Part shown: positions 17-29,338 of the stretch, piece by piece
How the letters are laid out: each line of letters starts with the position of its first letter
How positions within the stretch are numbered: position 1 is the first letter of the stretch
Source: a virus
Lineage: Duplodnaviria > Caudoviricetes
Length of the DNA: 64,000 nt
Direction: 5' to 3' (one strand)
IMG/VR virus record: IMGVR_UViG_3300023170_004399
Span: 1-64,000 of that record
Translations under genes and position numbers: made by a program
Notes under the pieces: model-generated
Told to the model about the DNA's origin: nothing
What the model saw: the letters and a program-made list of their open reading frames with translations, nothing else
The model's database searches: none

Positions 17-841
17 ATGTCATCAGAATTTGAATCTTCTCTGAGAAATGTGTTTACTGCAATACTTCCTCACTGTGTTGTCGCTGTAATACAAACAAAA
101 GAACCCTTCGACAGCTGCAATCTCGCTTCGGAAGTAAGCAGAGCTGCAGCTATTGAAGGTTATGGACCTACGCTGTATGACTTAGTTATGTCGATAGAGG
201 AAAATGGAATAATTCCAGATAGGGGTTCTGTCAGCCGTTCTGCGAGAAAGGTATATCGTTTCTATGCAGAGAAACGGCCAGATATTGAGAAAAAATACTT
301 AGACCCAGATAGTGTCACGGATATAAGTAATGATGACTGTCCAGATCATGCTGGAAATAATAAAATGATAGAAAATGCGTACAAGGATGCTTTTGAATTA
401 TGGTTAAAAAGTTATGACCCGGGTCTATATGATGCTGTGGATAGCGTATATTTTAGTAAACACCCTTACACTGCTGTAAGGTTAATAAAAAAGTATTATT
501 CACAGGATTTTGTTATAGATGATATTGTTTCGCAGTGGGAGTCTGATAAAGAAAATATAGAAAGAAACTTATTTAAATTTTCACCAACTATAGTTTTTGA
601 ACCTAATGAAGAGTTAGACTTAAGCTTTAACACTGATTATGCAAAAGAAGCTTTTAAAAGTTTAACAAAAGCACACGAGGACTTTTTATTTATTTTAAAT
701 GAAATGGTTGAGGATATATTATACAATGGCTATGAACTTGAAGAATCATTTGCTGGCATGTTTGAAAAAATAAAGTCTAATACATACCAGAGTATATTAA
801 TTGGCTTTTTCGACGAGCACTACGCAGGAGCAGAAAATTGA
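17..841 (+). CDS. GNAT-like family paralog 1 (frame open to the window edge, probably 5-prime truncated)
   Basis: AAAIEGYGPTLYD...IIPDR.SVS.SARKVY motif shared with five nearby ORFs; no stop codon upstream in frame to position 2. Confidence 0.6.
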   Translation: MSSEFESSLRNVFTAILPHCVVAVIQTKEPFDSCNLASEVSRAAAIEGYGPTLYDLVMSIEENGIIPDRGSVSRSARKVYRFYAEKRPDIEKKYLDPDSVTDISNDDCPDHAGNNKMIENAYKDAFELWLKSYDPGLYDAVDSVYFSKHPYTAVRLIKKYYSQDFVIDDIVSQWESDKENIERNLFKFSPTIVFEPNEELDLSFNTDYAKEAFKSLTKAHEDFLFILNEMVEDILYNGYELEESFAGMFEKIKSNTYQSILIGFFDEHYAGAEN

Positions 842-1953
842 AAACTCTAAGAAAGCTAATACAAAATATAATAATAGAATCTAGTTACAAATCACCTAAG
901 AGTAATGAGGTGTTAGACAACATGGCACTATATCATGCAAGTGCGGGTGGCGGTGTTTTCATGGGCGGTTACACATGCATACTTTATGATAGGGTAAAAT
1001 TTTTAGAAGAAATGAAAAAAGTTATAGAAAAATCATATGAGGTTCACACAGATGCAGGAAATGCTGTTGCGGCCGCGGCTATAGATAACAGAGATGCTAG
1101 TACTGCTATTTATAATGAAATTTCTGATGAGTTTTATTCTGTGCTTTACGATTGCACTAAAGCAGCAATTAGAGCGGAAAACCAGGAGGGTGAAAATACT
1201 AATGGTGCAATGCAAATTACAAGAGCTGCAGCCATAGAAGGTTATGGTCCGACACTATATGATTTAACAATGTCTTATTTTGGAGATGGCATAACTTCTG
1301 ATAGAGAAGAAGTGTCGTCGTCGGCTAGAAAAGTTTATAACACTTATGCATTTAAAAGACCGGATATAGAAAAGAAATACCTTGATGGTGGTGATGCAAA
1401 AATTACTATGACTGATTTTGACGATACAGAATCCTATTGGAGTGACGACCCCCCGCTGCGACAAGCATATAACACTGCTTTTATGATGTGGCTTGAAAAT
1501 AATTTTGATAAAGATATTGTTGATATTTGCAAAAAACAAGGCTGGGCTGATAGAGCGAATTCGCCATTTATAATTATAAATTGGATGAAAAATCATTTTG
1601 GAAATGATAGCGAAACAGTAGAAGAAATAGAAGAACAATGGATGGAAGACCATTGGGAAATAGAACATGACTTACATAATGAAGTGCCATGGGATAGTAT
1701 TAAAGATGATTTTACAGAGAACGATCCTGACAGTGTGGCACTAGATTTAAGCTATAACACTAGTGCATTTTCTTGGGAACATAGTATATTGCAACGCAGA
1801 CACACAGATGTTAAAGGTGAATTAGGTGACCTTGTACATCATCTTAACAATTGGCACGGTTTAGAAGTAGATTTTTGGGAATTCTGTGAAGACCATGATA
1901 ATTATGACAGTATATTATTAAACTTTTTTAGAAAACGTATGGTAGAAAGATAA
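838..1953 (+). CDS. Leader-tagged (class A) GNAT-like paralog 2
   Basis: N-terminus MKTLRKLIQNIIIE; AAAIEGYGPTLYD...ITSDR..VSSSARKVY; close to ORF 17-841. Confidence 0.65.
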   Translation: MKTLRKLIQNIIIESSYKSPKSNEVLDNMALYHASAGGGVFMGGYTCILYDRVKFLEEMKKVIEKSYEVHTDAGNAVAAAAIDNRDASTAIYNEISDEFYSVLYDCTKAAIRAENQEGENTNGAMQITRAAAIEGYGPTLYDLTMSYFGDGITSDREEVSSSARKVYNTYAFKRPDIEKKYLDGGDAKITMTDFDDTESYWSDDPPLRQAYNTAFMMWLENNFDKDIVDICKKQGWADRANSPFIIINWMKNHFGNDSETVEEIEEQWMEDHWEIEHDLHNEVPWDSIKDDFTENDPDSVALDLSYNTSAFSWEHSILQRRHTDVKGELGDLVHHLNNWHGLEVDFWEFCEDHDNYDSILLNFFRKRMVER

Positions 1954-2987
1954 TGACTTATAGTTTAGAAAAATTGTTATTTGAGAATTACGTTAATCCT
2001 GGTGTAAGTAACCACTATACATATGTTTACGAAGGAGCTGACAGTACTGGAACTGAATGTATAATGATTGCTTTATTTAACAAAAGCTTGATCGATGAAT
2101 ACATCAACTGTGCAAAACAGAATATTGCACCGACTAGTCAGCTGACGAAACTTGGCAAAAAATTTATTGAAGCAATAAACGATGCAAATAATAATGACGG
2201 TGCTTTAAGAAAAGTTGCACCATTGGTAAAAAAATATTACATGTATGAACCATTTGAGTTTGAAGAACCGCAAGCAATTGATTTATATGGCGCAGATGAA
2301 TATCGTGGTGATCTTTGGATGTTCTTTGCTTCAATTGATGGAATGATTAAAGCAAAACCGACTAGTTCCTCAAAAAATTCTTATTACATTGAATACACTG
2401 CAGCGCACATAGGCTCTAAATTTGGGCCACTAATGAAAGATATGATGTTATCACATTTGCATCCAAAAATCATGGTTCCGGATAGAGGGCAAAAAGAAGT
2501 CGGCAAACGTGGGAACAAAAAGGTAATACCTTCAATTACTGATGCTGCTATGAATTTTTATAAATACATAAGAAATAAAAATCTTTTCGACAAATATGAT
2601 TTTATATTAATGGACTCTGAAAAAGAAAAAATAACTAGTACTAACTTAGATGATTTGCCATCATTACACAACTATAATACAAACCATAAACTTTCTGCTG
2701 TAGATTTAGAAAATAGAGATGCTCCTATTGTATATAACCCTGCACTTGATGGTATTTTATCTGATGGTGATTTGTATGACATAGGTGTAAAAATAAAACA
2801 AAAAGTATCGGTGCAAAACAATAATGCCATTATATATGAAGCTTTACAATACTTTAATGCATTTTTTATGGAGTTCGGCCATGATGATGCACCAAACGAT
2901 CAGTGTTTATTAGAATTAATAGAATCATATTTTGGATGTATTTATAAAGACAACACTTGGTGGAAACCATATCAGAAGGTGAAGTGA
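1953..2987 (+). CDS. Divergent GNAT-like paralog 3 with variant leader
   Basis: MTYSLEKLLFE; FGPLMKDMML...MVPDR...SITDAAMNFY. Confidence 0.5.
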   Translation: MTYSLEKLLFENYVNPGVSNHYTYVYEGADSTGTECIMIALFNKSLIDEYINCAKQNIAPTSQLTKLGKKFIEAINDANNNDGALRKVAPLVKKYYMYEPFEFEEPQAIDLYGADEYRGDLWMFFASIDGMIKAKPTSSSKNSYYIEYTAAHIGSKFGPLMKDMMLSHLHPKIMVPDRGQKEVGKRGNKKVIPSITDAAMNFYKYIRNKNLFDKYDFILMDSEKEKITSTNLDDLPSLHNYNTNHKLSAVDLENRDAPIVYNPALDGILSDGDLYDIGVKIKQKVSVQNNNAIIYEALQYFNAFFMEFGHDDAPNDQCLLELIESYFGCIYKDNTWWKPYQKVK

Positions 2988-28284: not shown

Positions 28285-28315
28285 CTAGATAATTATATTT
28301 TATCGGAGTTATTGT

Positions 28316-29338
28316 ATGATTAGAGAATTTATCAGAAATGTTATAACAGAGAATATAACTAGTGTCAATCATCAGGACATGATTAACAGGATTAGGGAAT
28401 ATTTTAAAGATATTTTAGTCACAACCGGTTTGCAATTCTCATATTATAATGAGTATGATAAAAAAACTGAAACTTTTAAGATGAAGTACCGTGGTGACAC
28501 TCATATTAACTATACTGGTGTTATCAAGCTAGAATTTATTATAGAACCAATGATTATTGGGGCAATTGAGGATTCAATGCTATTGTCTCCACTTCCGCCT
28601 GGTTACACTAGGAATACAATTAGGTATTTTGAAGATGAAGGATATAAAGAATTTAGTAAAGTTTATGATTCATTTGTTAATGATTTTAGAAAGTGGTGTA
28701 ATGCTAGAGGGTGGCATGTTGTTAACACTGGTCAGACTAGGTTAGAACCAAGTCATTTGATAATGAAGTTTACTATGTTGTTGCAACCATTACCACACAA
28801 AAAAAATCCTAGTTACTTTGCCGGCATTGAGGGCATTCAAGATAAATTAATTGTTCATTATACTGCTGAAGCTAATGAAGCCTCTATTAAATCAAAAGGT
28901 CTTAAGCCTACTGGTGGAAAAGCAAGATATGGTCATGATTTTGGTAAAGGCAGATTATATTTAATGCTTATTGACAAGAAAGATTATAATGATCCTCAGA
29001 AGTTGCAGGAATTTGCATATTTTATCAGTCAAATGTCGGGATTGAGTGCTTCTGGCAAAAAGGCTAATCAGCATAAATGTTTTATTGTTTTTGATCCGGC
29101 TAAGATTGATGCAGATAATTTTGGAATGAATTTTTATATTGATACTGAATTTAGCAAAAATGCAAAGATGGAAGTATATGATTCTCGCAGTGCTCCTTTA
29201 GGTTGGCATGTTTATTATGTTTATACGCCAACACATATTCCTGCAAAATATTATAAAGAAACTATTTATGTAGATGTTATGGGCAAAATAAAAGCTGAGT
29301 CATCTCCGCCGAAGCTGCAGTTCAACTTTAAAAGATAG
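28316..29338 (+). CDS. Leader-tagged protein with C-terminal Tpt1/KptA-like ART domain
   Basis: MIREFIRNVITE; VHYT...SIKSKGLKP, RLYL, YIDTE, HIPAKY. Confidence 0.55.
   Translation: MIREFIRNVITENITSVNHQDMINRIREYFKDILVTTGLQFSYYNEYDKKTETFKMKYRGDTHINYTGVIKLEFIIEPMIIGAIEDSMLLSPLPPGYTRNTIRYFEDEGYKEFSKVYDSFVNDFRKWCNARGWHVVNTGQTRLEPSHLIMKFTMLLQPLPHKKNPSYFAGIEGIQDKLIVHYTAEANEASIKSKGLKPTGGKARYGHDFGKGRLYLMLIDKKDYNDPQKLQEFAYFISQMSGLSASGKKANQHKCFIVFDPAKIDADNFGMNFYIDTEFSKNAKMEVYDSRSAPLGWHVYYVYTPTHIPAKYYKETIYVDVMGKIKAESSPPKLQFNFKR

Follow-up and report, generated by a model that had tools for sequence, protein, structure and literature searches.

Why would a phage place nearly the same short peptide at the start of dozens of proteins that otherwise have little in common? 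The question is raised by 64,000 nucleotides (nt) of DNA from a tailed phage (Duplodnaviria; Caudoviricetes), positions 1 to 64,000 of the IMG/VR record IMGVR_UViG_3300023170_004399, which we call the window. Positions 838-29338 of its + strand are densely filled with open reading frames (ORFs), all in one orientation, and 31 of the translated products begin with one of two leader peptides. We consider it probable that this array is a greatly expanded, multi-class form of the capsid-targeting and propeptide system of phage T4, in which packaging and cleavage are steps that we infer. The leaders would be capsid-targeting propeptides: N-terminal helices, basic and amphipathic, by which freshly synthesised cargo binds to the scaffolding core of the assembling prohead. 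After closure of the shell, a serine protease of the gp21 family would cut behind the Glu of a terminal (I/L)-x-E, an event that would free the mature cargo within the head, and the cargo would then probably leave together with the DNA and enter the host. This ejection is the weakest step of the scheme, and we give it no better than an even chance.

The leaders are real and lie far beyond chance expectation. An earlier note, made from the sequence alone, had listed 17 class A and 14 class B leaders at 838-29338, and both counts and coordinates proved exact. Class A conforms to M-K-x-L-R-K-Y-I-R-N-I-L-x-E, and 7 of its 17 members have a form two residues shorter that begins M-[LI]-R-K-Y-I. Class B conforms to M-[KR]-I-[ST]-K-R-Q-L-[RK]-x-I-I-R-E-E-Y, with an (L/I)-x-E 5-15 residues further on. 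Leader lengths are 12-14 or about 27 residues, and the peptides are strongly basic; that of the ORF at 838 (ORFs are named here by their start positions) forms a basic amphipathic helix at residues 2-16 of an AlphaFold2 (AF2) model. A six-frame count of regular-expression matches gave 18 for class A, with 0.035 expected, and 12 for class B, with none expected (200 mononucleotide shuffles); the ORFs of the + strand gave 17 versus 0.016 and 12 versus 0, respectively (500 residue shuffles). All of these matches are N-terminal in position. Profile models of both leaders, scanned beyond the 31 genes, found three further ORFs in the window, at 61929 (+), at 52749 (-) and at 21872-22873, the last with a C-terminal motif.

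The array genes are tandem, co-oriented and tightly packed, and they include three groups of paralogues. These features could point to plain tandem duplication, with the leader being the part that has changed most slowly since a common ancestor, or else a DNA recombination cassette, and having no addressing function in either case. We regard this explanation as very improbable. The invariant Leu at position 8 of class B is written with 5 different codons, and pairs among the leaders of 17117, 17575 and 24140 differ by 9-11 synonymous and 4-7 non-synonymous codons per 27. Further, the DNA 5' of the leader start codons bears no likeness from gene to gene. Because synonymous sites vary so widely and the flanking DNA is not conserved, purifying selection acts on the leader peptide alone; up to 5 codons per invariant leader residue exclude a DNA cassette, and the earlier claim of conservation at the peptide level stands. 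The bodies, too, are mostly unrelated, as had been claimed: an all-against-all BLASTP comparison found similarity only within the groups {17, 838, 6915, 8887, 10053}, {12409, 12933} and {18660, 20083}. They differ in length and in fold, as the two bodies modelled from deep alignments illustrate (an alpha/beta core with a helical bundle for 838; an ADP-ribosyltransferase, or ART, fold for 6223). Finally, the same body occurs elsewhere with a class A leader, a class B leader, a T4-like leader or none.

This last observation bears on the proposed function. Of the 150 top-ranked representatives of the 838 family, 44 carry class-A-like leaders and 14 class-B-like leaders, and in 92 the leader is absent or weak; the leaderless members begin precisely at the start of the conserved body. 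In the 6223 family (116 homologues), the class A leader is present in 27 members and the class B leader in one (P0290), and others have shorter leaders. P0290 and the class A member P0276 have identical first 31 body residues. Eleven members of this family begin with decapeptides resembling the T4 capsid-targeting sequence (CTS), e.g., M-I-T-F-K-Q-F-I-A-E and M-K-T-F-Y-E-F-L-N-E. In 49 of 84 aligned family members, a hydrophobic-x-Glu sits exactly 14 residues N-terminal of an invariant His. Such a junction, fixed with respect to the body and preceded by interchangeable peptides, looks like a processing site behind a targeting peptide. Of the seven homologues of 20083, six keep class-B-type leaders and the seventh starts within the body. 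Judged from these alignments, the tag is a portable module that can be exchanged for T4-CTS-like decapeptides on the same body.

The bodies themselves turn over rapidly. Scanning related phages with the leader models, as the earlier note had suggested, revealed 14 class A and 28 class B leaders in one relative (G001) and 16 and 24, respectively, in another (G002), nearly all of them on the coding strand and Met-initiated. A relative of the body was found in G001, G002 or the more distant G006 for only 7 of the 31 array proteins (0 of 14 in class B), as opposed to 15 of 21 control genes. T-even internal proteins likewise conserve the tag while the cargo turns over (PMC3012670). The best explanation for these patterns is that the array is a fast-evolving arsenal of cargo in which the tag is kept and the bodies are replaced.

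Does the phage encode the machinery that such a system would need? The protein of 8887 is present on a record of 269,730 bp (ena:ERZ27313218:k141_1002057), a locus of which (L001) is 100% identical to window positions 6887-11732; the window therefore corresponds to positions 9,764-73,763 of that record. We walked along the phage by exact-protein look-ups, with 0-17 mismatches in successive overlaps and the last four loci taken from the window's own record. The phage is a T4-core jumbo phage of an abundant, uncultured marine clade and is itself abundant at salt-marsh sites in Georgia; IMG/VR relatives of 211-289 kb match its core proteins at 48-72% identity, whereas an exact-match search of IMG/VR did not find the window itself. 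Its own record carries PF07230, PF03420 and PF07068 (the T4-type portal, gp21-family protease and gp23 capsid protein). A head module at record positions 146,667-167,134 comprises terminase, Portal_T4, a 280-amino-acid (aa) protein, Peptidase_S77 and five small proteins, and continues with a bS21-like protein, a 604-aa scaffold-like protein with acid/basic blocks, the Gp23 capsid protein, gp13 and sheath. The Peptidase_S77 (T4 gp21 family) has 202 aa and is 84% identical to its G001 counterpart; the family is present in all six examined relatives of 211-289 kb, and marine metagenomes contain more than 8,000 close homologues of it. Thus, the lack of a Glu-specific prohead protease, which would have spoken against capsid targeting, cannot be invoked.

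The leader motifs also recur inside the head module. A 155-aa protein adjoining the protease has a class-B-like N-terminus (9.6 bits against the class B model), and its pattern K-x-x-[RK]-x-x-L-K-x-[LI]-[IV]-K-E is kept in G001 and G002 and, despite its distance, in G006. The C-terminus of a 192-aa protein reads ..L-L-R-K-Y-I-R-N-L-I-E-V and scores 13.6 bits with the class A model. Both genes lie in the stretch that separates the protease gene from that of the scaffold. Neither leader model matched the portal, scaffold, capsid protein or protease significantly, and the large structural precursors are therefore without tags; the earlier note had proposed this test for scaffold, capsid and portal precursors. 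Nor is the leader equally common on non-virion enzymes, a pattern that would have weakened the capsid-targeting proposal: none was found on recognisable replication, metabolic, glycan, tail, baseplate or terminase genes in the roughly 157 kb of the genome covered, record positions 9,764-167,134. As a separate observation, the scaffold-like protein (L157 12232-14046, record about 158,898-160,712) ends in ..L-D-R-W-Q-V-L-A-G-I-K-K, and that of G001 (173942-175672) in ..L-N-R-W-A-K-L-A-G-L-N-K-K. The R-W-x-x-L-A-G peptide may be a second capsid-docking tag; no copy of it occurs in the window.

The cleavage logic agrees with that of T4, in which gp21 cuts after L/I-X-E (PMC9026906). The T4 CTS consists of the first ten residues of IPIII, M-K-T-Y-Q-E-F-I-A-E (PMC9026906, PMC8442874), of which positions 4 and 7 matter for targeting and position 8 for processing (PMC9026906). 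Class A has a hydrophobic residue at position 4, an aromatic one at position 7 and Ile at position 8. An (I/L/V)-x-E ends or lies inside 30 of the 31 leaders, at residues 12-33, with 18021 (S-I-G-E) as the exception, and the residue after the Glu is S, G, A, T or M at 25 of those 30 sites. Similar sites exist in the phage's own structural proteins. The scaffold has 19 [LI]xE sites where 9.3 are expected (z 3.6), the capsid protein has ..VLRE/ANT at residue 59 (the slash marks the predicted cut), and the protease begins M-S-N-L-K-V-L-T-E/W, with ..VLTE ending at residue 9. An (L/I)-x-E that ends within the first 9-11 protease residues is conserved in three relatives and parallels LIE-9 of T4 gp21. 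A complex prediction for the G001 protease and a class B leader (45 residues) scored 0.01 and speaks neither for nor against cleavage.

A basic amphipathic helix might also serve as an uncleaved docking or oligomerisation element that directs proteins to the membrane, nucleoid, ribosome or a replication compartment and has nothing to do with the capsid. The distance of the arrays from the head genes would fit such a role, and so would the normal frequency of cleavage motifs in the bodies. This explanation nevertheless seems distinctly unlikely to us. It does not account for a Glu junction that is fixed ahead of homologous bodies for every leader type, for the exchange of leaders with T4-CTS-like decapeptides, for the motif copies on head-module proteins or for a gp21-type protease of matching specificity in the genome; and the leader is too charged for a Sec, Tat or membrane signal.

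Several results do weigh against the capsid-targeting proposal. Scored with the class A model, the T4 CTS reaches only 1.9 bits, which is not significant, and homology between the leaders and the T4 CTS is therefore not demonstrated. The distant relative G006 has the protease and almost no matches to either leader model. The motif [LI]xE shows no depletion in the cargo bodies (z -0.6 in this phage and 0.0 in G001), which consequently bear no signature of protease avoidance. Some 125 kb separate the head module from the arrays, whose small-ORF neighbourhood looks early, and a scan for sigma-70 promoters and terminators remained at chance level (68 promoter-like sites versus 66 expected). The sequence TATAATTA precedes the portal gene, the neck gene and further genes of the head and recurs at 17070, 61866 and 30064; a generic -10 hexamer forms part of it, so that it hints at co-regulation only weakly. 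Lastly, the array proteins have no relatives in 50,697 cultured-phage records (megablast, tblastn), in which a 33-residue class B peptide likewise gave only chance-level matches. Nonetheless, the capsid-targeting proposal of the earlier note survived every test run (protease, (I/L/V)-x-E, distribution among recognisable genes and portability); its packaging and injection steps are what we infer beyond these results.

What, then, would be carried? About 30 array proteins gave no Pfam match above curated cut-offs, and 39 proteins gave no PHROG family of known function, with one weak match (phrog_1204, E 7e-4). The body of 6223 is predicted to be an enzyme with the ART fold. In its AF2 model (predicted local distance difference test, pLDDT, 93.6), all 50 matches listed by the VIA fold search and most of the top Foldseek matches belong to the ART superfamily, the best VIA match being Tpt1/KptA (Z 8.3; root-mean-square deviation 3.2 Å over 90 residues). 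His29, Tyr66 and Glu116 are invariant in the family and Tyr73 nearly so; the first three are the putative nicotinamide adenine dinucleotide (NAD)-site triad, assigned from the H-Y-E pattern rather than mapped on the model. This fold suggests a parallel with Alt, the packaged ART of T4. The 838 model (pLDDT 90.3) has feature matches in the Atlas to GNAT clusters (0.91-0.92), and Foldseek gave weak matches to Fem and GNAT proteins (E 0.3-2); an exhaustive VIA search was dominated by helical bundles (Z at most 6), and the profile had no match among PDB sequences. The family to which it belongs (family 1; five members, four of them tagged) carries a conserved G-Y-G-P motif and is only weakly predicted to be acetyltransferase-like. 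The model of 13466 (pLDDT 0.35) gave an Atlas search that was not usable. The expectation that many of the cargo proteins would be modifying enzymes thus holds for one ART fold and, weakly, for one GNAT-like family; it was overstated for the rest, which have no support in Pfam or PHROGs.

These bodies bear on another possibility, namely, that the leaders do load the prohead core but that the proteins are assembly or core accessories, which are degraded and expelled, or retained, and are not injected effectors. The motifs are, after all, common to conserved small proteins of the head module, the normal number of [LI]xE sites in the bodies would permit further cutting, and most proteins of the T4 core are broken into fragments and exit the head (PMC9026906). 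We nonetheless find this account unlikely. The high turnover of the bodies in the three related phages suits proteins engaged in conflict, not assembly parts. Further, the ART-fold cargo resembles the injected T4 Alt, and one tagged class A protein of G001 is a Zeta_toxin/AAA_33 kinase.

The proposed system can be compared with several known ones. It resembles the T4 CTS and internal-protein system in having portal, protease and capsid protein of T4 type and, at the N-termini of unrelated, fast-evolving proteins, a short leader whose end is (L/I)-x-E; further points in common are the residues at the key positions 4, 7 and 8 (PMC9026906), an ART-fold cargo and, on homologues of 6223 in other phages, T4-CTS-like decapeptides. 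It differs in that its leaders are longer than the 10 residues of T4, strongly basic and of at least two classes; in that there are 31 in 28.5 kb here, and 40-42 per relative, as compared with about 4 in T4; and in that the genes form operon-like arrays in a system known from sequence alone. Giant phages such as phiKZ, 201phi2-1 and SPN3US also have dozens of head-internal proteins (PMC9026906, PMC7411985). In phiKZ-like phages, propeptides are cut after Glu by a gp21-related protease (gp175/gp245), and the head holds a large mass of ejected protein (PMC9026906, PMC7411985). Unlike the present phage, they use the cleavage motif S/A-X-E and belong to a different lineage with virion RNA polymerases. 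We know of no shared portable leader sequence in that group. In phage P1, the Dar anti-defence proteins enter the head during assembly and are delivered with the DNA, but by ordered, protein-dependent incorporation that is not known to involve a common cleavable tag or a T4-type protease. Encapsulin cargo-loading peptides are short, portable and send unrelated cargo inside an HK97-fold shell; unlike the leaders described here, they are usually C-terminal, uncleaved and bound directly to the shell protein, and neither DNA nor ejection is involved.

That the CTS allows T4-like phages to load varied proteins has been suggested before (PMC9026906). What is new here is the scale, the two long leader classes, the natural exchange of leaders with T4-like decapeptides and the copies on head-core proteins. 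A paper on “moraphages” (PMC12619734), whose coverage of this lineage is not established, does not mention such leaders. The copies on head-core proteins raise the further and more doubtful possibility that these abundant marine jumbo phages run a multi-address capsid-loading system, each tag class having been copied from a terminus of a different head-core protein. The resemblance of class B to the N-terminus of the 155-aa protein, and of class A to the C-terminus of the 192-aa protein, would be explained in this way, and the classes would send cargo to different sites in the prohead core or load it in different copy numbers.

The tagged genes are listed in the table below. Between the class A and class B arrays lies an island (14930-17116) of higher G+C content (0.39-0.42) and reversed GC skew, with two long non-coding gaps, GGGCC-rich repeats and a strong terminator-like hairpin at 16869-16889. 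It includes an untagged KaiC/RecA-like ATPase gene (15909-16649), which adjoins the arrays in G001 as well. Another untagged gene, at 27427-28284 (+) inside the array, has a weak, sub-threshold match to DUF4258 (E 7e-5). Just past the array, at 30143-30490 (+), the phage encodes a transfer-messenger RNA (tmRNA; Rfam RF00023, 101 bits), for which ARAGORN gives the tag peptide ANNNKHFEAAAIAA; the copy of TATAATTA at 30064 is upstream of it. Two giant adjacent ORFs follow at 32592-37550 and 37525-42276 (+), encoding proteins of 1652 and 1583 aa with similar N-termini and no Pfam domain. ARAGORN also places a tRNA-Leu (anticodon taa) at 44736-44807 (+), inside the end of ORF 44279-44863, with no Rfam tRNA match at the gathering score. 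At 53915-56730 (+), a MoxR-like AAA_5 ATPase gene lies beside one for a DUF2201 metallopeptidase-like/VWA protein, and both products are 63-64% identical to their G001 counterparts. From 62257-64000 onward (L136), the trio YeaH (DUF444), SpoVR and PrkA is followed by Hc1-like, sigma-70 region 4 and PhoH/PIN genes. Farther along the same phage (L138-L141, about 76-99 kb in window-equivalent positions) are about ten glycosyltransferase genes, sugar-nucleotide genes and a carbamoyltransferase gene; this glycan run precedes very large structural genes (1122, 1279, 2135 and 1094 aa).

Table. Genes of the window that carry leader peptides or related motifs; a slash marks the predicted cut.
Class	Coordinates	Strand	Product and remarks
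Class A	838..1953	+	371 aa, TTG start, ..IIIE/S; paralogue family 1, possibly GNAT-like
Class A	2988..4160	+	390 aa, ..VITE/K; no Pfam match
Class A	4170..5177	+	335 aa, ..LLTE/L; body relative in G001
Class A	5190..5747	+	185 aa, ..ILRE/S
Class A	6223..6918	+	231 aa, ..LLRE/MAAP; predicted ART-fold body
Class A	6915..7604	+	229 aa, ..LLTE/G; family 1
Class A	7601..8890	+	429 aa, ..TINE/S
Class A	8887..9732	+	281 aa, ..ILVE/A; family 1; identical protein on the 269,730-bp record
Class A	10053..10757	+	234 aa, shortened end ..KIME/G; family 1
Class A, short form (M-L-R-K-Y-I-R start)	10759..11499	+	246 aa, ..IISE/G
Class A	11511..12356	+	281 aa, ..IINE/S; mechanical ORF call begins upstream (GTG 11439)
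Class A	12409..12933	+	174 aa, ..VIQE/S; paralogue of 12933
Class A	12933..13469	+	178 aa, ..IISE/S; paralogue of 12409
Class A	13466..14929	+	487 aa, ..IILE/R; closes the gap-free class A operon
Class B	17117..17572	+	151 aa, ..KMLNE/A; opens the class B array; TATAATTA at 17070, 47 nt upstream
Class B	17575..17994	+	139 aa, ..KMLNE/D
Class B	18021..18335	+	104 aa; sole candidate site S-I-G-E
Class B	18353..18697	+	114 aa, ..SINE/S
Class B, divergent	18690..19496	+	..QLRLVIRE/A; alternative start 18660; paralogue of 20083
Class B	19616..20062	+	148 aa, ..VIKE/G
Class B	20083..20886	+	267 aa, ..FIRE/A
Class B	20888..21523	+	211 aa, ..RINE/S
Class B	21540..21860	+	106 aa, ..TLNE/S
Class-B-like C-terminal motif, no N-terminal leader	21872..22873	+	333 aa; K-I-P-K-S-A-L-K-K-I-I-R-E-E-Y in frame in the last 32 residues (22775-22870), 16.8 bits
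Class A	22842..23363	+	173 aa; leader from 22854 after M-L-G-F, ..ILLE/T
Class A	23370..23765	+	131 aa, ..LIYE/M
Class B	23889..24128	+	79 aa, ..ILNE/E
Class B	24140..24757	+	205 aa, ..RMLNE/S
Class B, divergent	24797..25693	+	298 aa, ..RLNE/S
Class B	25707..26390	+	227 aa, ..MLQE/G
Class B	26412..27356	+	314 aa, ..LLQE/T
Class A	28316..29338	+	340 aa, M-I-R-E-F-I-R-N-V-I-T-E/N; body relative in G002
Class-A-like, outside 838-29338	52468..52749	-	93 aa, ..N-L-K-K-Y-I-R-Y-I-I-S-E/E, 12.9 bits; G001 homologue
Class A, outside 838-29338	61929..62195	+	88 aa, TTG start, ..ILNE/T; TATAATTA at 61866; G001 homologue

If the tags are capsid-targeting signals, the motif alone would flag dozens of head-carried proteins per genome in widespread, uncultured giant phages of the sea. 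Such a phage may fire tagged proteins into its host ahead of its own gene expression, and the arrays would then constitute a catalogue of candidate host-takeover or anti-defence proteins, among them an ART fold and, in a relative, a zeta-toxin-like kinase, most of them without a known fold family. The CTS principle of T4 would scale about ten-fold, in interchangeable classes, and the portable tags could be tried as a means of filling large capsids with foreign proteins. Should the doubtful multi-address arrangement also hold, well over 10% of the genes of the phage would be devoted to virion-delivered, host-directed effectors, a larger set than any other virus of bacteria is known to package.

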